DNA from: Leucoraja ocellata
Taxonomy: Eukaryota
Direction of reading: 5' to 3'
NCBI GenBank assembly: GCA_036785375.1
Contig: JAWMAR010000416.1
Location: 930,001-994,000, forward strand
DNA: 64,000 nucleotides
Positions 5,291 to 58,129 of this stretch are shown here, one piece after another. Numbering within the stretch: position 1 is the first letter of the stretch; each line of letters opens with the position of its first letter. The translations under genes and the position numbers were made by a program. The notes below the pieces were generated by a model that made no database searches, was not told the origin of the DNA, and worked only from the letters and a program-made list of their open reading frames with translations.

Positions 5291-6283
5291 TTTGAATTGT
5301 TGATGTTGCTGATTATTGTTTAATCTTGATGACAACGTCACATATCACAGAGCCGACTTCAAAATACATGGGCAAAATAATAATCGAAATACTTATTTTG
5401 GATTTAACCCACCAAGAGTCATCCTCACCCCTTTTAAATTTAAGCACAATCTTAAATGAAAGGTAAAACACAAGCGTGACTGTCAGCTAGTAGAATGAGG
5501 GATCAGGGAGGAGGAAGAATGTCTGAAGTGATTATTTTGTCTTGAAATTGTTAATAAAGTCATGGAATATGACCCTGCATACTGGGAGAATGTGTTGTAA
5601 ATATTCACATTAAAATTTGTTCATAATTAGTGTTCATCTCTAGAAGATGCTGGGCCTGTAACGCCAGTTTAGTTTTCCATGATGGAAATAGACTTGTTTT
5701 TGTTTGAACTACTCAGTCAAACTGAAACCAAAAGGTGAACTAGCAGGTGTCCTTTTCAACGTATTTCTACGCTAGACTACAATATTTACCAAGGCTCGTA
5801 GCACTTACATTAAGGAAGAACTGGAAGCGATTCCAGGTGTATTAACACATTTCGCTGTTGAGAAAATAATTGTCTGGATTTTCTGTCGACTGAGGTTATA
5901 GTTTTCTTTTGTTTTGAGCGTAAAACAAAGCGTGAGACAGATGTCAAGATTAAAATGTCAAAGCAATGACTAAACCATTCCAAACCATATCTGAAGTAGG
6001 GTCCCGACCCAAAACATTATCTATCCATGTCCTCCAGAGCGAGGTGCCACCTGACCCGCTAACTCACTCCAGCACTTTGTATCTTTGTTTGTGTGGTAAA
6101 ACAGGCATCTGCAGTTCCTAAATCCCATCTTGCTTTTCCTAATTAATAAATAATTGGGAACATTTGGCAACAATGGGCCAAAATACAAAATGGATCCTCC
6201 TGGTCATGGAGTATGTTCAGAGCTAGTCAATACTTAGACAAAATTCTTTGACATCATCATAAATAAGTATAAAGTTAACAAAC

Positions 6284-9200
6284 CTTCAACAGCAGCTGTT
6301 TGGTCAAAATTCTTTGACACAAAGTCTATGGTGGTATATGCACCATCATCAGTGAAGTTGATATTTCCTTTGCGTTGAGGCGTCAGTTGATATTGTGCCA
6401 CTTTCTCATAGCTCAAGAAATTGTCATCCCCTAAGCCCAAGGCAACATAATTCAGGCCACTTTGAATTCCAGCTGAGGTTTTACGGCTGATCGGGCTTCC
6501 TTGAACCTCTTCAGCTTCTTCATTCTTTCTGAGGGAAACGTTTTCAAATGAAGCTGAGCTGTGTCTCTTGGGGTCATGAGCAAATGAAGGTGAAACAGGC
6601 GTGACAGTCGTTGTGGAAGAGAACGTCTCCGAGCTGTGGCGTCTGCGTCCCTGAGGGTTGGCGCGGATAACTTTAGCACCCCGGTTCGGATCGGGTGCCA
6701 AGCTTGGAAGAATGAAAACATCTACCCCAGGCATATGATCTATCAGGGAGAGTCTTTCCATCCCGGTTGTGGGGCTGTCCACTTGTTTTGGAGGGACAGG
6801 CAGAGGGGGTGTTGTCGCCATTATAAATGCCATTTCTGTATATTCCGTCTCATCTTCTGAGGGGTGAGCGAGACAGTTGGTTCCAACTTGACTTTTCAGG
6901 AAAACATCGATGGGGAGATTTCTGCTGGGACATGACACTGTAGACCCAGTTATTGCATCAAAGGAACTGATGGAAACAAATCCATTCTTTGGTGACTTTG
7001 AGTTGAGATCGACATTCATGTAATCAGATACTGGCAAACCTTTCTGGACATTTGCAAAATCCGGAAAAGATAAGGAACTTTTATGTGGCACAGATGGTGC
7101 AATGTATGGACATTTGTTGCTGAAATCTATACTGACATATTCCCCTGGGCTTTTTGGTTCAGGCAATGAAGCAGGTTCATTTGGACTCGATAGTGTGTTG
7201 GCTCGTAGCATCTCCAGTGACAGTCTGGAGGGTCTCATAACTCTTTCTCGGCGGGCTAAACCATCCACCAGACTTTGCCTAACTGATGAATGTGCAGCTT
7301 GGTTTACCACAGAAGGAGCGCCACACTTTACGTTCAATGCTGGCTCTTCAAGAATCACACCATGTGGCAAACTCATCAGAACATAGTGATCATTTCCCCC
7401 ATCCTTCTGGCAATGAGGCTTATGAGACTGGGGGAATGTGTAAAAAGAGTCACTGGATCTGGGAAGTTCTTCACTAACAGGGAAAAAGCAATCTGGAGGC
7501 GTAACTGATGCACAGTGATCAACAGGAGACATATTCATGTATTCGTCCGAGGTGAACTTCCCGTCAGAACTTTCTACCGAAAGCTTTGACCCGCACCACA
7601 TTCTCTTGTATTGACTGGTATCAGGTAAGCAGCACCCAGTAGGAGAAATGTTCTTGTATCCACTTACATTCATTTGTGAATGTAATCGCGGATTAATTAT
7701 TTGTTTCGGTGCAGACACACTTTTGGGGCTCATTGGCATGTAGTCATCATTTTTGTGAGGAACATTCCCCATGCCGTGGGTCATCGGCATGTAGCCATCA
7801 TCACCAAGGTTACTGCACCCAGAATTTTTTTGGGACCCTACTTGAATGTCACAATAGTCTTCGGGATAAGGATTGTAGGCTACGTTGGGGGAGACTGGAC
7901 ACGACAGGTGTTCAGAATTGCCAATGCAAGTAGCTTTCATTAAAGTATATTCATCTAATGAAACAGAAGAAACCTGTGAAATGGCACTCTGGCGGCAAGG
8001 TGTTGTCAGGGAATAGGTTCTCTTCCGGTAACTTTTATCAGAACTTTCATCCCTTTCAATGTGAGAACAGCCAGGCCCACACCGGCCACTAGCATGCCTT
8101 TCCATTAACATGTAACCATACAACTCATTGCACTCACGTACAGGCGGGGTGTAGGTGAGGGATTCTGGAGTATTGTTTCTATATCCCATGTACTGCCTCA
8201 AATCTCCAGGACTGGAACCGTATTCATCAAAGGAAATAAACCCTCCGTCACTTGGAGATCCCGAGACAGATGCATTAGCGCTGGATGGACGAGCTATGGT
8301 GTCTGATGCAGACCCATGGCCACTGCTGGAGGACAGGCTCACTGGGCTGGTGGCGGATAAGGGGGAATGAGACACGGGCATGGACATCGACTGGCTATGG
8401 TGAAGAGTATTGGGCTGCATCGCCCTGGGGTTTTTCGACATGGTATTTAACCGGCTGAAGTGTGTTCTCGCCGAGCTTGGACTGATGGGGCTACCGGTCA
8501 TAGACTCTAGTCTACACACGGAGCTGTCTCCTTCGCTGGCTGTCCTCGTACGACTCGGCACAATCTTACCAGCATGAGATGGGGTGGCGATGCTGTCAGT
8601 CCTCGACCGCCTATGTAGTAACCCAGCCTGGCTGGGGGGCAGGTGGACCAAGTGCCGGCGGCCGGGCACCGAGATGGGATGGGAGCCGGACGACTGGCTC
8701 TTGCTGCGGGGCCGGAACTCACACAGCTCCTTCATGGCTTTCATCGCCTCCAGAATGGTTTCGTGGATGTGCTGAGCCACCACCGAGTCGTCCACCTGCA
8801 TCCACAGCTCGCCGGGCCCGGTGGACGCCGACCTGCCCACCTCGATGAAGAAGAAATTCTCCGAGTGGCCGCAGCGCCTGATGTTCATCAGTTGCAGGCT
8901 GACCGAGGGCAGCTCGCAGTTGAGTTTCACCAAGCCCATGCTCTGGCTCGAAAGGCACAGCATGTAAACGCCGCTGAGATTCCTGGCTTGGCCCAGGCCT
9001 TTAGGCTTCAGGTTGACCTGCCACACTTGCTTGTAGAGGGCGGTGGGCAGGGGGCCGTAGTCGCTGTGATCGGTGTAGGGAGGCGGCGGCGGCAGCGGCG
9101 GCGACGAGGAGCCAGAGCCCGGGGGCAGCAGGTCGCTCAGCGCCGTGAACCAGCTGTGTTGCTCCGGCTCGCTGTCCGCCGCCACTGCCAGGTACTCGTC

Positions 9201-9482
9201 CTTAGTGTAGAGCGCGATCAGGTACTTGTGCTTGGCGTCCGCTCGCTTGTTGATGCTCAGGCAGCACTCCAGGGAGACCACCCTCTTGGCCGACGACTTG
9301 TTCCTCCACTTTTTCTCGTTCTCGTAGTACTCCAGCCTGGCCGGGCATCCGCCTCCCCGCTCCCGCAGCACGAAGAACCTCTTGTGTCCGTGTTTCTGCT
9401 TCTTCAAGTAACCGCATTTCCTCACCTTGGCCGGGCACAGAGAACCAGACGACCCGCCTTTCACTGTTGGCGGACTCGCCAT
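6284..9482 (-). CDS. irs2: Insulin receptor substrate 2-like, large coding exon (1066 codons + 1 nt): PH domain, PTB domain, YxxM-rich tail
   Basis: ORF 6234..9692 contains MASPP...VRKCGYLKKQKHGHKRFFVLR (IRS2-type PH), VWQVNLKPKGLGQ...IRRCGHSENFFFIEVGRS (PTB), the IRS2 KRLB-like SLDEYTLM/YNPYPEDY segment, several YMPM/YMNM motifs, RRRHSSETFSST and C-terminal LNYVAL/YTTIDF. The MASPP ATG is at 9482. GAAG|GTTTGT is a donor-like site after 6284, at the position where mammalian IRS2 has its phase-1 intron just before the stop. Confidence 0.93.
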
Positions 9483-9500
9483 TCTTTTGAAACAATGTCC
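8580..9500. other. CpG-island-like GC-rich segment over the PH/PTB-coding part of irs2
   Basis: Visibly high GC and CpG density compared with the CpG-poor 3' two-thirds of the same exon. Confidence 0.7.
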
Positions 9501-9639
9501 TTCCACATATATACATGTAGATGTGAAACGCCGTGAGTGTGGGTTTGTGTGTGTTTTTCTTCCCTTCTCTCTCTCTCTCTCTCTCTCTCTCAACGCTCTT
9601 CGTCTTGTTCTACGTTCTCTCCTTGTCGAAGTGGGAGGG

Positions 9640-9760
9640 CGAGCAGTAAATATCACACACACACATTGACTGGCGAAAAAGCAAAACAACATGTGACGTC
9701 CCTAACACACGCCAGCTCTCCAGTGAAACACAGAAGGTGCGAGGCGGGGCGGGGAGGGCG
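9640..9760 (-). promoter_or_regulatory. irs2 proximal promoter: IRE (TGTTTTG), E-box (CACATG), CRE-like GACGTCA and GC box
   Basis: Minus strand GGGACGTCACATGTTGTTTTGC at 9681-9702; GGGGCGGGG near 9746; forkhead-like GTAAATA near 9647. About 200 bp upstream of the ATG in a CpG-rich context. Confidence 0.65.
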
Positions 9761-34708: not shown

Positions 34709-35950
34709 CTAAACTAAGCGGGACCCGTTGGGTCCCAACATCACACAGGAGGGCTGGTCCCCCAACACAATATTCCACCTCCCCATAAATTCCAATATTG
34801 GTAGCCAGTGGGGGGGGGGGGGGGTAGGGGGGATAGGGGGGGGCTTTCTGAAGCACTGGTATGGGTGTTGTGGGCTGAAGGGACTGGTTTCCAGAGGGCT
34901 AGTATCGACATTGCGGGCCGAATGGATTCTTGGACTGGCGGCTCAGTCACTCAAGCCTGTTGTGCTTGCAGCTCACTCACTCACGGCTGGTCGGCTGGCA
35001 GTTGACTCACGGCTATTCCTTGAAATTCCATTTCAAGCATGATGCAAGGCCACCAAATTCAAATGCAGTTTCTTACCACTTGAAGCAGGGTGCAAGGCCA
35101 CCAAATTCAAGTGCAGTTTCCTACCATTTCAAGCAAGGCCACCAAAGACAGCGAGTCGTGACCTCCCCCTCCTCCATTTTGCAGATTCTGAACCACGCTC
35201 ACACTTCTGGGTTTTATAGTCCATCCTCCCCTCCCACCAGAAGGTGCATGGCTGACAGGAGAGAGAATCTCAACATTTTGAAAACACTAATAACTCTTTT
35301 ATTTTCCATCGATGGGAAAATTCTTCGGCACCTGATTAGCGGAGGGGGACTCTGAGTAAGATGGCCAAAAGTCACAGCCATATGTGATAGTGTTTATTCT
35401 AAAATCAATATAAAGCGCAAACAGGAAGTGGTCAAGATTAGACTTTTAATTATATAGAAGACGGCAACTTTAATTAGGCAACACAGCTTTAGCATTTCCA
35501 AACCAAAGGCAACACAGCTTTAGCATTTCCAATCCAAAGGCAACACGGCTTTAGCATTTCCAAACTATATTTTCAAACACATTAAGGGTACTCAAGGTCA
35601 GTAAAACCATCACAGTTAGTGGACATGTGTTCAGTGTTATTCACAGTTCAGACTGAGAGATGTGTCCCTCCGCTCTCCCATCTTGCAGAGACTGACTGAG
35701 GCACTCAACACTTCAGTTTTATAGTCCCTCCGGAAGCGGGTTGGCCTTCAGGAGAGAGAATCTCAACATTTTTTAAACATTAATAACTCTTTTATTTATC
35801 ATCAATGGGAAAAACACTCTTGTCCTGCGCAGCGGAGAGGGACTCGGAGTAAGATGGCCAAAAATCACAGCCGCAAGTGGCAACATTTTTTCTAAAATCA
35901 CTATACAGAACAACAGGAAGTGGTCAAGATCAGACTTTTAGTAATATAGA
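34709..35950 (-). mobile_element. Non-autonomous Helitron, composite with two 5' ends
   Basis: Minus strand starts A|TCTATATTACTAAAAG at 35950, with a second TCTATATAATTAAAAG at 35458. It ends with hairpin GGGACCC-AAC-GGGTCCC followed by …TTAGTTTAG|T. No TSD. Confidence 0.8.
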
Positions 35951-38274: not shown

Positions 38275-38745
38275 GTACCTGGACGTGGCGTCCAAGGATG
38301 AGAAGCCGAAGCAAAGAAATGGAAGCCAAATAATCGAATGGAAACAAAGCCGAAAAGCCAACTAACCGAAAGGGCGGGATGCCTAAAAGCCAACTAACTG
38401 AAAGGGTAGGACGCCTAACAGCCAATTCACCGAAAGGCCGCTCTGCCGAAACGCCAACTAACCGAAAGGCCACGTCGCATAGAAGTCAACTCACCTAAAA
38501 GCCGCTGTGCCGAAAAGCCAAATAACGGACATGATGTCGCCGGGGGGGAGGGGGGGGGAGGCGGGACCTGTCAGCGATTCAGACCCCCGCGTCCATCACA
38601 TCACTGGCCAGGAGGGTGGTGGTCATTTTCCCACACAAGACCACCCTGGGCTAGAGGGTGACTGGGCACTTTGACCCCGAGCACCAAGTTGTAAGCGGCC
38701 GAAGGAGCACATCCCTTGGGACAGCCCCCACTCTCCCACGGCCAC
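38275..38745. mobile_element. Unclassified insertion with tandem (CCGAAA…GCCAACTAA)n subterminal-type repeats, inside a CR1 fragment
   Basis: Recurrent CCGAAAAGCCAACTAACCGAAAGG-like units at 38325-38525. CR1 sequence flanks both sides. Confidence 0.45.
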
Positions 38746-48566: not shown

Positions 48567-49515
48567 CTAGACTAAGTGGAATTGTTGGGTCCCATGTACA
48601 CACAGGAGGACTGGTCCCCCAACGTAATATTCCACCTCTCCATCAATTCCAATATTTCTGGCCAGTCGGGGGGAGGGGGGGGGGGGTTTCTGGAGCGCTA
48701 GTATGACTCTAGTGGGCTGAAGGGACTGGTTTCCATAGGGCTAGTATGGACATTGTGGACGAATGGATTCTTGGGCTGGCAGCTCTGTCACTCAGGGCTG
48801 GTCGGCTGGCAGCAGTCACTCGGGGCTGGTGGGCTCGCAGCTCAGTCACTCAGGGCTGGTGGGCTGGCACTTCAGTCACTCAGGGCTGGTGGGCTGGCAG
48901 CTCAGTCACTCAGGGCTGGTGGGCTGGCAGTTCACTCACGACTATTGAAATTCCATTCCAGGCAAGGTGCAGGCCACCACATTCAATTCAATAGCACTCC
49001 AGGCAGGGTGCATGCCACCACATTCAATTGCACAGCACTCCAGGCAGGGTGCAGGCCACACATTCAATTTCATAGCATTTCAGGCAGAGTGCAGGCCACT
49101 AAATTGCCAAACAACTAATTGCATTGTCATTAAGGATAACAGTTCATTTATTGCAAGTACACTGCAGACTCACAGTTCAGTTGATTCACAGCTTAGAATA
49201 ACAGTCGTGGCCTCTCCATCGCGATCTTGCAGAGTGACTGAATCAAGTCCAGGCATCCGGGGTTTTATAGTCCTGCCCTCCCCGTGACAGGGGCGTTACC
49301 TTCATTGCGGTGATTGACAGGCAATAAGAACAATCAGCTGATCTCAAGGTTTTTTAAACACTCATAATTTTTTTTTTCATTGATGGGAAAAATCCTCGGC
49401 AGAGGAGGACGTGAGTAAGGGCCAAAAATCACAGCGACACAGGGTAGCGTTGTTTCTAAAATCAATATACAGCGCAGACAGGAAGTGGTCAAGATGAGAC
49501 TTTTAATTATATAGA
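48567..49515 (-). mobile_element. Non-autonomous Helitron with 30-bp and ~43-bp internal tandem repeats
   Basis: A|TCTATATAATTAAAAG…TTAGTCTAG|T. Homologous to 34709-35458. GGGCTGGCAGCTCAGTCACTCAGGGCTGGT repeats at 48770-48935. Confidence 0.85.
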
Positions 49516-51839: not shown

Positions 51840-52060
51840 TGTAGATTGGCTATTTCCTACTAGCCAATTATAGTGCTTGTTAGTAGTGACTCCGCCTATT
51901 ATGCTCTTTATATTATCAAGCTTGCCTATACTAGTTAGTACGAGTAGCTGCTAGGAAATGTAATGTCTTGCAGATCTATGCTGTAAGTAGATTTAATAAA
52001 CATGTGTTGTAGCTTGATATGTGTTCGACTCAACTCATTACATGGTGTCAGAAGTGGGAT
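51840..52060 (+). mobile_element. Gypsy LTR (51840-52042) and tRNA-Leu primer-binding site (52043-52060)
   Basis: TGTA…TACA termini and AATAAA near 51995, immediately followed by TGGTGTCAGAAGTGGGAT (complement of the tRNA-Leu(CAG) 3' end including CCA). Confidence 0.8.
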
Positions 52061-54140
52061 GATGTGTTGTTTTTCCAGCCAGCCATGCCGGATGACTGCA
52101 GACAGCAATTGTAAAGTCTCATCAGCAGCTGTGTGTTCTGCAAGGCTGCTCAAGCAATCAGTCGGAACACACGATACCTTTACTGATAACTGGTGCTGTT
52201 CAGAGTTGTTGTTCATTGGTTTTGCGTGGGTCTCTTGATAGTGTATCAGCTTCTTATAGACCATGTTGAAATCAAATCGCTGCATTTGCATCATCATTTG
52301 TTGTGGTCGTGCTAGGGCAGCGTGAATGGGTTTGTTCAAAATAGTGACCAGCGTCTGGTGGTCAGTTTCTATAGTCACAGACTTCCCAAAGATAAAGTCC
52401 TTGAATTTCGTGCAGGCGAAAACCACTGTGACCGATTCTTTTTTGATCTGGGAGTAACGTTGTTCAGTGTCAGTTAGAGTGCGAGAGGCATACGAAATGT
52501 GCTTGCAGTCACCATTGGTAGTGGTCTGCAGGCAAGCAGCGCCAAGTCCGCTCTGGGACGCATTGCAGGTGAGCGTTACTGGTAACTCCAAAGCAAAGTA
52601 GGCGAGAGTAGGTGCGCTAGCCAGCTGCAATTTGAGAGTGTCAAAAGTTCTTTGGTGCTACAGATACCAGGACCATGCAGCGTCCTTGTGTGTCAGTTCT
52701 CGCGGGGGGGGGGGCAGATATGTTGCTGAGGTTGTGAATAAATTTCCCCAGGTAGTTGACCATTCCAAGGAACCTTTGTAGGCTCATGGCATCAGCAGGA
52801 ACCTGGATTTCGTTGATAGCTGCAGTTTTTGATGGGTCTGGTCTGAGACCATCACTTGTGAAGACATGTCCGACGTAGGTAACTTCTGGAACTCAAAACC
52901 TGCACTTCAGGGGATTGAGTTTGATTTGAATGTCTTTGGCACGGCCTAGTACTTTTTTCAGATTGGCGTCATGTTCAGCCAAATGATGTCCGTAGACGAG
53001 AATGTCATCAACAATTATGGCGCATGGGTACTCAACAAACAATTGTTCCATCGTGCGCTGGAAAACTTCGCTGGCGGAGTTGATGCCAAAGGGCATTCTC
53101 AGAAATTTGTTTCAGCCAAAGGGGGTGCTGAACGTTGTGAGATTGGACGAGTCTGGGTCCAGTGGAATCTGCCAAAACAAGCTCTTGGCATCCAGAACAG
53201 AGAATACTGATCTGAGCAGCAGCTTCCTCTAATGCTCGCATAGGGCAGTGCAGGCGTTTAATGGCAGTTAAGATTTCTGGGGTTTATGCAGATATGGATC
53301 TCCTCCTTGTTTTTCTTTGTCGCGACTACCATGGTGGAAACCCAGTCAGATGGGTCAGTAACTTCAGCAATAACACCCGTGGAGACCATCCGCTTGAGTT
53401 CATTGTGTACTCTGTCATGCATGGCATGCAGAACACGATGTGGTGCTTGGACCACAGGAGTGACATTGGGATCAACAACAATGTGATAGTTGATAGGCAA
53501 CTTGCTAAGCTTGTCGTTAAACAGATCTTTGTATTGATAGAGTACCTGTTGAGTAGGTCCGTCAGCGAGAAAGAGTTGATGGACGGCACGGCCAAAGTAT
53601 ACCAGACCTAGATCGTGGCATGCATTGATACCGAGCAAAGTCTCTGAATCCCCCTTAACAATATAAAACTTTAAGGTACGGGTCTGCTCGTCTATGGTGC
53701 ACGTTAAATCAGTTTGTCCAAGAGGGTGTAGAACATCTCCCCCGTAAGCCCGAAGTGTGGCCGAGGCCTTTTCAATATGTTCAGCAATACGAATTATTTA
53801 AAACTCTGATAATGAGATGATGTTGCATTTGGCGCCAGTATCAACCTTAGTGATCAAAGGCCTGTTATTCACAAACATGGTTACCTCAGGGTCAAGTTGC
53901 TCATTAGACGAAGGGAGGAGAGAGTGGATGGCAGAACTGGTATCTGTACTTACTGAGAATGGAGCGAGGTATGGCAAGTCAGGCTCTTGGAAGTCATTAG
54001 CAGGAAGCTCATGTTGTAGCAGGTGCAGGTTTGTCCTTGAAGCTGCTTGAGTCACATGGGAATGGCAGCATCGAGCAAAGTGGTTTAACTTCTTGCAGAA
54101 AGTACAGGCTTTACCATAAGCAACGCAGAACTGCCGACCC
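52061..54140 (-). pseudogene. Degraded Ty3/Gypsy gag-pol (zinc knuckle, protease, RT, RNase H)
   Basis: CTFCKKLNHFARCC CCHC knuckle (~54070-54110), KVDTGAKCNII protease, MPFGINSASEVFQR…IVDDILVYG RT, SYASRTLTDTEQRYSQIKKE RNase H. Contains frameshifts and stops. Confidence 0.92.
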
Positions 54141-54884
54141 GTAGCATGAATATTACAACAAACAACAAAGCGAAGCCAGGCGGTATCACTGGCAACAATG
54201 GGTCCCTCCCAGGTGAGCTCAATGCATTCTACACTTGCTTGGAACTAAAGGTCTGTGGTGGAATGTCACCCTCTTTATATCCTGCTTTAGCTGTTATAGG
54301 CTCACAGAATAATGAAAGGCATAGATAGAGTGGATGTGGAAGGGATGTTTCCACTGGTGGGAGAGTCTAGGACCAGAGGTCATGGCCTCAGAATTAAAGG
54401 GCAATCTTTTAAAAAGGAGGTGAGGAGGAACTTCGTTAATCAGGGGCAAAGATCCTAGAGGAGCAAGATAGACCACTCCTTCGAAATTCAATGGGCTGGC
54501 GTGTAGTACGTGACGGAACGTCACGGCCGCCATTTTTCAATGCGACACGTGACTTCCGGTATGCCACCCGCTGTGATCCAAAGCAAAGATTATAGAGCTC
54601 CACTATAATCTTTGATCCAAAGCAAAGATCCTCGAGTATCTTGTAGCGGGAACAGCCCCCTCCTTTGCGTAGTTTCCCTTGCATTGTATTGCTTTAACAC
54701 ACACTGCACAAAATTAAATTTAACGTATACATATTATATATATTTATATGAATGTGTGTCTGTGTGTGAGAGGCAAGTTAGAGATAGTTAAGTTTATTCT
54801 CATGGATCAGAAGCAACTTTGATTTAAATAATCACTATTAATTTATTTGTCTTGTAAGATGATATACATAAACCATAAAGGCAA

Positions 54885-55170
54885 TTATATATATAATTAT
54901 ATAGTAATAATATATATATGCATATATATATTTATACACACATATATATACACATACATATATACACACACATATATACACATACATACGTATACACATG
55001 CATATGCACACATACAAATACACACATACATATGGATACATTTATATGCATACATACACACATATAAACATATATATACATACATGTATACACACATATA
55101 CATATACATGCATATATACACATACATGCATATATATACACATGCATATATATTTATACATATGATTAAC
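54885..55170 (+). repeat. (TA/CA) compound microsatellite
   Basis: Alternating purine-pyrimidine TATACA-type tract. Confidence 0.95.
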
Positions 55171-55174
55171 ATGT

Positions 55175-56565
55175 AGAGGAACCAACGAGAGAGCAGGCTA
55201 TTTTAAACTGGGTATTGAGTAATGAGGAAGGGTTAGTTAGCAATCTTGTTGTACGTGCCCCCTTGGGCAAGAGTGACCATAATATGGTTGAGTTCTTCAT
55301 TAGGCAGGCAGTGACTAGTGGGGTACCGCAAGGCTCAGTGCTGGGACCCCAGCTATTTACAATATATATTAATGATCTGGATGAGGGAATTGAAAGCAAT
55401 ATCTCCAAGTTTGCGGATGACACTAAGCTGGGGGGCAGTGTTAGCTGTGAGGAGGATGCTAGGAGACTGCAAGGTGACTTGGATAGGCTGGGTGAGTGGG
55501 CAAATGTTTGGCAGATGCAGCATAATGTGGATAAATGTGAGGTTATCCATTTTGGTGGCAAAAACAGGAAAGCAGACTATTATCTAGATGGCGGCCGACT
55601 AGGAAAAGGGGAGATGCAGCGAGACCTGGGTGTCATGGTACACCAGTCATTGAAAGTAGGCATGCAGGTGCAGCAGGCAGTGAAGAAAGCGAATGGTATG
55701 TTAGCTTTCATAGCGAAAGGATTTGAGTATAGGAGCAGGGAGTTTCTACTGCAGTTGTACAGGGTCTTGGTGAGACCACACCTGGAGTATTGCGTACAGT
55801 TTTGGTCTCCAAATCTGAGGAAGGACATTATTGCCATAGAGGGAGTGCAGAGAAGGTTCACCAGACTGATTCCTGGGATGTCAGGACTGTCTTATGAAGA
55901 AAGACTGGATACACTTGGTTTATACTCTCTAGAATTTAGGAGATTGAGAGGGGATCTTATAGAAACTTACAAAATTCTTAAGGGGTTGGACAGACTAGAT
56001 GCAGGAAGATTGCTCCCAATGTTGGGGAAGTCCAGGACAAGGGGTCACAGCTTAAGGATAAGGGGGAAATCCTTTAAAACCGAGATGAGAAGAACCTTTT
56101 TCACACAGAGAGTGGTGAATCTCTGGAACTCTCTGCCGCAGAGGGTAGTCGAAGCCAGTTCATTGGCTATATTTAAGAGGGAGTTAGATGTGGCCCTTGT
56201 GGCTAAGGGGATCAGAGGGTATGGAGAGAAGGCAGGTACGGGATACTGAGTTGGATGATCAGCCATGATCATGTTGAATGGCGGTGCAAACCTCGAAGGG
56301 CCGAATGGCCTACTCCTGCACCTAATTTCTATGTTTCTATTATTTTCCAACGATCAATAGATTTACGATCAGTTCCTGTGGATTGGAGGATAGCTAATGC
56401 TATCCCACTTTTCAAGAAAGGAGCGAGAGAGAAAACGGGGAATTACAGACCAGTTAGCCTGACTTTGGTGGTGTGAAAGATGCTGGAGTCAATTATTAAA
56501 GATGTAATAATGGGACATTTGGATAGCAGTAAAAGGATTAGTCCAAGTCAACATGGATTTATGAT
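55175..56565 (+). mobile_element. CR1 LINE composite: young 3' RT fragment (55303-56340) between two upstream CR1 pieces
   Basis: ORF 55215..56249 has SDHNMVEF fused to GVPQGSVLGP…FADDTKL…WNSLP. After the tail comes VPVDWRIANAIPLFKKG…NYRPVSLT. Confidence 0.92.
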
Positions 56566-56857
56566 TTTACAATGCATTTAAGCCTCTCCCATTTTTATGA
56601 GATTAATTCCTGGAATATGTAGGAAGTATATTGTAACCTAGTGCTACTTGCCTGAACAATGGATGATATATCACTTAAATGCAATTGTTTTCAGTTGTGT
56701 GGAGAGACCTGTATATTGAAAATGCGTTTTGCCTCTAATATGTCAATTTACCTTAAATGTAGAAGAGCTTATTAAAATCTTCTTACAAAGACCATTAAGT
56801 ATTTTCTATCTATCCTCTTTTGGACCCAAGGCATAGCAGAGCTGCCAACTCTCACGA

Positions 56858-57120
56858 AGAGGTAAGGGAGGGAGAGATGGAAGGGAGGGAGAGAGGGAAG
56901 GGAGGGAGATCGCGAAGAGAGGGAGAGAGAGAGAGAGAGAGAGAGAGATCGAGAGAAGAGAGGGGAGCGAGAGATCGAGAGGAGGGGAGAGAGAGATCGA
57001 GAGAAGAGAGGGAGAAGGGGGGAGAGGGAGAAGGGGAAAGGGGGGGACAGGGAGAAGGGGGGAGGGAGAAGGGGGACAGGGACAAGGGGGAGAGGGAGAA
57101 GGGGGAGAGGGAGAGTGGAA
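56858..57120 (+). repeat. Polypurine (GA) low-complexity tract
   Basis: G/A-rich with GAGATCGAGA units. Confidence 0.9.
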
Positions 57121-58129
57121 CGATAGCACATTATAACGCGCAGCCGTCCCATTCCGACCAAAGATTATAGAGCAGAGCTCCACTAGTATCTTTGATTGCG
57201 GCCGCCGCCACCAAACCCCCCGATCCACCATTGCACCCAAAGATAGAGCAGTTATATAATATTTGATTGCACCCTTCTTCACGACGGGCTTGTGATTTTT
57301 GCTTGTGATGTCTTGTATGTATGTGAGTGTTGTTTGCTATGTCCCTATGTTCGAGGAATATAATGGGTAACAGCCGCCCATTCTCGGACTTGAATCTGAG
57401 CTCGAAAAATCTCCTGGTCACTGGACCTGATGTGTCCGCGGGCCATATTGTGGAGACTAATCCTTTACAAAACAAAACCAAAAACGTACAGAAGTGTTAA
57501 AATTGTCTTTATTATTGTGGTGAGTAAAGAACTATTAAAAATAAGTCTAATAACTTTCTAATGTACCGACAAACCCAGTTTCCCAATGGCCGTTGATGGG
57601 AGAACAGAAAATAACATTTTCACGACAGAATATCGACTGAAAATAATAAAAATATTTTCTCACCTTTCTTTTTTATTGGGGAACCTAAAGAGTGACAGGT
57701 TGGGTCATTTAGATTTACGATTAGAATACTTGATAGCAGAGCAGTGAGATGAAATTTAGATAAGGACGCCATGACAGTGTGGGGGAAGCCCAATAAATGC
57801 CTCGAAAAATGGCGTCGACGATCACACACGTCATACTACGCGTTTTTCGAGGAGTGGTCTATCTTGCTCCTCTAGGATCTTTGATCAGGGGGTCGTTAAT
57901 CTGTGGAACAAATTGCTACAAAGGGCTGTGTAGGTCGTCAGTGGATACTTTTAAGGCAGAAATAGACTAATTATTGATTGGAACGGGTGTCGAGGGTTAT
58001 GATGAGAAGGCAGGAAAATGGGATTAAGTGGCAGAGATCACCCATGATTGAATGGCTGAGTAGACGGGATGGGCTGAATGGCATAATTCTACTCCTATCT
58101 CTTGTGAACGTAGCCCGAGGCTCGGCTAT

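Follow-up and report, generated by a model that had tools for sequence, protein, structure and literature searches.

Probable fossil scars of P-type excision inside a non-autonomous terminal inverted repeat element of the skate Leucoraja ocellata

A stretch of 64,000 nucleotides from Leucoraja ocellata, analysed here as a whole (hereafter the window), contains three very short palindromes, P1 to P3, which raise the question of whether they are what a P-type transposase left behind on excision or small elements in their own right. An initial annotation had reported them with lengths of 31, 36 and 28 bp at the positions listed in Table 1, and all three are indeed present there. Comparison of their flanks over lengths of 2 to 12 bp revealed duplications matching at 8/8 positions for P1, 6/8 for P2 and 8/8 for P3, length 8 alone giving the full or best match. 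The 8-bp duplications that had been claimed are thus borne out, although P3 is less palindromic than was implied: mismatches fall in 6 of its 12 first positions because of a 3-nt deletion. The decayed fourth copy proposed at 54623 (P4) also exists but is not accompanied by a duplication, the sequences compared at length 8 matching at just 1/8 or 3/8 positions.

Table 1. Coordinates in the window of the putative scars, of the element enclosing them and of the neighbouring features.
Feature	Position	Strand	Remarks
P1, putative scar, 31 bp	54584..54614	+	left end ~14 nt + right end 17 nt, sharing 1-2 nt at joint
P1 duplication, left copy	54576..54583	+	8/8
P1 duplication, right copy	54615..54622	+	doubles as left flank of P4
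P2, putative scar, 36 bp	57159..57194	+	17 + 2 + 17 nt; both 17-mers fit end pattern with 0 mismatches
P2 duplication, left copy	57151..57158	+	6/8 to 57195-57202
P2 duplication, right copy	57195..57202	+	6/8 to left copy
P3, putative scar, 28 bp	57238..57265	+	left 17-mer minus 3 nt, ~3 nt filler, right end ~11 nt, as aligned with P1 and P2
P3 duplication, left copy	57230..57237	+	8/8
P3 duplication, right copy	57266..57273	+	8/8
P4, decayed end remnant	54623..54643	+	left 18 nt match host TIR at 15/18; no third duplication copy
Entire host element, 3,437 bp, non-autonomous with TIRs, probably P-like	54447..57883	.	TIRs, duplication, paralogue; no transposase domain in six frames
Host left TIR, 34 bp, starts CAAAGAT	54447..54480	+	100% complementary to 57850-57883
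Host right TIR, 34 bp	57850..57883	-	100% complementary to left TIR
Host target-site duplication, left copy	54439..54446	+	8/8 to 57884-57891; single copy in paralogue
Host target-site duplication, right copy	57884..57891	+	8/8 to 54439-54446
Imperfect subterminal homology with right end, to ~position 90	54481..54540	+	alignment
Decayed LINE 3' segment, left half of target	54301..54438	+	76% to paralogue 49873-49724
Decayed LINE, right half of target	57892..58097	+	77.6% to 49736-49519; abuts left half on paralogue
TA/CA microsatellite in host	54883..55163	.	repeat scan
Nested LINE fragment with reverse-transcriptase remnant	55170..56341	+	Pfam RVT_1 E 4.6e-11; 91% to 42635-42023
Possible second RT fragment	56420..56572	+	RVT_1 E 0.024, under cut-off
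GA-rich simple repeat in host	56858..57115	.	repeat scan

A chance origin of the palindromes can be rejected, since shuffled sequences give 0.05 per window with a motif-pair pattern as well as with a motif-blind scan. The motif-pair pattern found 5 strand-matches at 3 sites where 0.05 were expected, and none of 100 shuffles reached 5, a statistic that is post hoc as the pattern was derived from P1-P3 themselves. The motif-blind scan, which sought an exact 8-bp duplication flanking 18-60-bp inverted arms, returned 5 matches (P1, P3 and 3 in the TA/CA microsatellite) against a mean of 0.05 over 20 local shuffles. Once up to 2 flank mismatches were tolerated, 9 matches were obtained (P1, P2, 5 in the microsatellite and 2 unrelated) against a shuffle mean of 0.75, and consequently the 6/8 flank of P2 is not significant by itself; P2 rests on its likeness to P1, with which it is identical in 29 of 31 columns.

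The initial annotation had proposed, as a check, that longer elements with the same termini be sought. One such element is present in the window, a 3,437-bp host that had been missed and that begins, like the palindromes, with the CAAAGAT motif. It splits a decayed LINE, which we take to be a CR1, and a paralogous empty site at 49873-49519 in the window is continuous across the insertion point with one target copy (6/8 alike), showing that the host is a real insertion. The two host ends are imperfectly alike to about position 90, a stretch in which transposase sites may lie. A 17-nt end pattern derived from the host ends, P1 and P2 gave 6/6 matches at those very sites, with 0.69 expected. All four target duplications (starting at 54439, 54576, 57151 and 57230) begin with AT in one orientation, while their ends vary; given an AT frequency of 0.072, this post hoc observation may reflect an oriented target preference. 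Other candidates with TIRs and a duplication were also sought in the window: 4 of the 5 matches at length 8 are, by eye, inverted pairs of interspersed repeats, and lengths 7 and 9 gave 7 matches. A 10-bp inverted repeat pair lies just within the host right TIR (57800-57852) and its motif recurs at 57401, and a single motif without inverted partner in the window, presumably resembling a hAT-type end, was noted at 56844-56856.

P1 to P4 all lie within this one host and none was detected in the remaining 60.5 kb of the window. Finding 3/3 scars in 5.4% of the window has a probability of ~1.5e-4 if they are independent; they are therefore not independent genome-wide scars, and either the host brought them along, perhaps as fixed parts of the family consensus, or self-targeting produced them. 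Because of this confinement, it is fairly likely that the scars are fixed internal parts of the family consensus, the very case that the initial annotation had given as refuting its proposal. The confinement also suits the idea that the palindromes are native TIR-like repeats of the host, either binding sites or slippage copies, that never were separate insertions and whose flank duplications have another origin, as does the lack of an empty site for the scars in the window and in indirect prokaryotic, plasmid and protein searches. We find this most improbable, as in each scar two ends meet head to head and are flanked by a duplication of exactly 8 bp that differs from scar to scar, which slippage does not predict, and as shuffling yields such arrangements at the low rate given above. 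No second copy of the sequence surrounding the scars, be it an empty or a full site, was found in the window; searches for paralogues gave 0 matches in bacterial and archaeal genomes for both patterns, and none in plasmids.

What points to excision is where the arms stop. When the four intact arms are aligned without gaps to the 34-nt host TIR, those of P1 cease to match after position 14 (left) and 18 (right), and those of P2 after 17 and 18 respectively; of TIR positions 19-34, none of the 3 scars contains more than 5 nt in one piece. The yardstick for these stops is the TIR of a related element, the host, rather than that of the parent of the scars, positions 8-9, 13 and 15 being different, and the left arm of P2 may consequently extend up to ~20 nt. 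Gapped local alignments reach TIR positions 21-31 in 5/6 arms, which we read as borrowing from the opposite arm, although this is not provable. The scars can accordingly be read as 14+17 nt (P1), 17+2+17 nt (P2) and ~14+3+11 nt (P3). P2 can also be read as P1 with a 5-nt tandem duplication, so that P1 and P2 may share one event. If arm lengths are taken, crudely, as uniform up to a total of 60 nt, the probability that both arms measure at most 18 nt in three scars is 0.0016, and 0.0044 for at most 20 nt; this calculation is post hoc, ignores the bias towards noticing short copies and concerns a selected sample of n=3. An excision scar should hold at most ~17 nt of each end between two target copies, and 14-18 nt were found by ungapped comparison with the related host TIR.

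This anatomy recalls that of Drosophila melanogaster P, whose transposase cuts such that each flank retains a 17-nt 3' tail of element sequence, according to passages of PMC2895639 and PMC7776569. Table 1 of PMC2895639 includes joints of 14+2+14, 15+2+15 and 17+2+16, the first and last of which closely parallel P1 and P2. The 66 isolates tabulated there come from Rad51-null flies, and 28 of them measure 28-38 nt while 38 fall outside this range; a tally of 28/44 is obtained when 22 are left out, namely 19 that retain 4-7 nt and 3 whose deletions run beyond the target copy. As in the skate, the tabulated fly junctions consist of two 8-bp target copies around at most 17 nt per end, joined through 1-3 nt of microhomology or a short filler, with 30-37 nt as the commonest long class. 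However, they are induced laboratory events in a Rad51-null background, whereas those of the skate arose naturally, are either fixed or old, and sit inside a relative. The terminal sequences of the two are unrelated past the first two bases, and the fly P target motif is near-palindromic in the text of bioRxiv 158386, unlike the skate duplications with their AT starts in one orientation. The use by P4 of a duplication copy of P1 resembles P double insertions described in the same preprint, but the expected third copy is absent.

It is probable, in our view, that P1-P3 are fossil P-type excision scars, formed at donor sites and brought in as cargo of the host element. The proposal of P-type scars rather than mini-MITEs accordingly gains from the arm stops and from lengths that fit fly P junctions, and loses from the confinement of all copies to one element. 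Its main rival supposes extreme internal-deletion derivatives of a TIR element with 8-bp duplications, either hAT or P, whose lengths are unrelated to the cut position and of which aborted gap repair or hairpin-loop deletion would have left the ends alone. Ends and 8-bp duplication fit what we take to be the terminal consensus of P and hAT alike, so that hAT is compatible too, and noticing palindromes favours short copies. Moreover, repair in wild-type flies mostly proceeds by partial synthesis followed by joining, as reported in parts of PMC2895639, and a gap-repair origin was proposed for P-MITEs in the main text of PMC1562414. We nevertheless hold internal deletion to be unlikely, as it leaves unexplained why arms end at 14-18 nt in each of the three scars and as the window contains no intermediate-length copy bearing such ends, the host excepted.

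Could the 31-36-bp unit itself be a transposing mini-MITE, each copy with its own 8-bp duplication? The near-identity of P1 and P2, in the same orientation and with different flanks, speaks in favour. Of a MITE one would expect many dispersed copies, uniform in length and sequence; the window holds 3 copies (28, 31 and 36 bp), all inside one element. Yet the centres differ among P1, P2 and P3, as expected from separate joining events, and the units are devoid of TIR positions 19-34 and of the subterminal block that the host retains at its two ends. Fly P requires further transposase sites, located internally to the TIR, according to the excerpted text of PMC7776569, and pairing of ends across such short DNA seems implausible. 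Mini-MITEs are consequently quite improbable.

Which superfamily was involved is best approached through ends and duplications, by which non-autonomous elements are classed (passages of PMC4455052). As expected for P, 8-bp target duplications are found at 8/8 for the host, P1 and P3 and at 6/8 for P2, with an empty site for the host. The host TIR starts with CA and, at 34 bp, is slightly longer than the ~13-32 bp typical of P, a trait that is not diagnostic against hAT, for which the 8-bp duplication and short TIRs hold as well. A hAT element would leave no long ends at the donor site, whereas 14-18 nt per end stay in the skate scars, a distinction that holds only for direct excision products. 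Sections of PMC5499845 present hAT and MULE, which resemble the skate elements in their long target duplications and TIRs, as the other main long-duplication groups, in which the flank forms a hairpin and the element end goes with the excised piece; direct excision should therefore not leave 14-18 nt per end. P superfamily membership of the scars and host is likely, and the 8-bp duplications and common termini tie both to one kind of transposase.

The enzyme itself was sought in the window. Translated in six frames, the host yielded only reverse transcriptase with Pfam and no THAP or P-type DDE transposase domain, an absence expected in a non-autonomous copy. Beyond the host and the IRS2 region, all 300 frames without a stop over 62 aa or more were searched, and the only domains above cut-off were RT/RNase H of retrotransposons, with no transposase among them; remnants that are shorter or more broken would escape such a frame-based search. 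The view that THAP9 was the agent finds no support, as nothing favours this host gene over the family's own transposase. A 121-aa frame across P2 and P3 is spurious, without a match at E<=1 among 8 candidates; its 2 phmmer matches are due to chance, being to proteins with tandem repeats, at 29-39% identity along short segments that recur. Rfam gave sub-threshold matches only, all in the microsatellite. The bases flanking P1 and P4 (54564-54680) read loosely, across frames, as THAP-like, presumably as the start of a THAP domain motif, a speculative reading without Pfam match.

For these fossil P-type scars, we infer the following order of events along with cut position and P membership. Members of a skate P-type cut-and-paste family with CAAAGAT ends would have inserted inside a non-autonomous relative, every insertion duplicating 8 bp of target. 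A transposase would then have excised them by a long staggered cut, a 17-nt one to judge from arm lengths, so that the flanks kept ~17 nt of each end as 3' single strands, which end joining may have fused with the help of 1-2 nt of microhomology or by adding a short filler. The host most likely brought at least the older scars to the present site, and they may therefore be fixed parts of its family consensus. All 42 TIR and duplication positions of the host are identical, while P2 has mismatches at 2/8 flank and 2/12 arm positions and the nested LINE is 91% identical to its paralogue, a divergence at which 42 identical positions have p=0.022, a weak hint that the cargo predates the host insertion. 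Skates might harbour a P-like family that has been mobile recently, that inserts in its own relatives at targets starting with AT in one orientation, and whose scars, made up of 17(-18) nt of the ends, build up within non-autonomous copies. We advance this tentatively, together with its corollary that a cartilaginous fish retains the long staggered cut of the fly enzyme and that genome sequence by itself suffices to read it.

Related elements offer partial parallels. Zebrafish Pdre2/zfTHAP9 is, like the skate host, a vertebrate system with TIRs, subterminal repeats and an 8-bp duplication, but passages and the Discussion of bioRxiv 2024.03.22.586318 give it TIRs of 13 bp with a different sequence, report larger flanking deletions in cell assays of zebrafish THAP9 and attribute the 17-nt stagger to the fly enzyme alone. 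For human THAP9, the terms 17 nt, stagger and overhang are all absent from the main text of PMC8230255. Anopheles gambiae P masters and P-MITEs share with the skate elements 8-bp duplications, non-autonomous copies and unrelated internal cargo, and have 27-32-bp TIRs and several coexisting subfamilies, according to the main text of PMC1562414; the P-MITE references are at least 205 bp long there, unlike the skate scars, and the word 'footprint' is absent from that text. As the 17-nt staggered cut has been described as a peculiarity of fly P transposase, natural scars would provide a test, by sequence comparison only, of its conservation in vertebrates, and would also help to sort non-autonomous elements with 8-bp duplications between P and hAT. 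No paper on vertebrate P-type scars was found in a literature search lying mostly outside subscription papers and outside Repbase and Dfam, a result that speaks only weakly for novelty. To judge from the perfect ends of the host, the family seems fairly recent, and an intact skate transposase may therefore be findable.

The target LINE of the host adjoins a broken LTR-retrotransposon pol remnant, presumably Gypsy-like, with RT and RNase H domains (51938-54244, minus strand). Minisatellites with periods of 30-64 bp occur at 35028-35565, 38349-38526 and 48772-49099. The host lies ~45 kb upstream of a large IRS2 exon (6234-9701, minus strand), which marks the window as that of a rajid skate, being 98% identical to IRS2 of Amblyraja radiata and at most 78% identical to that of the other cartilaginous fish listed.
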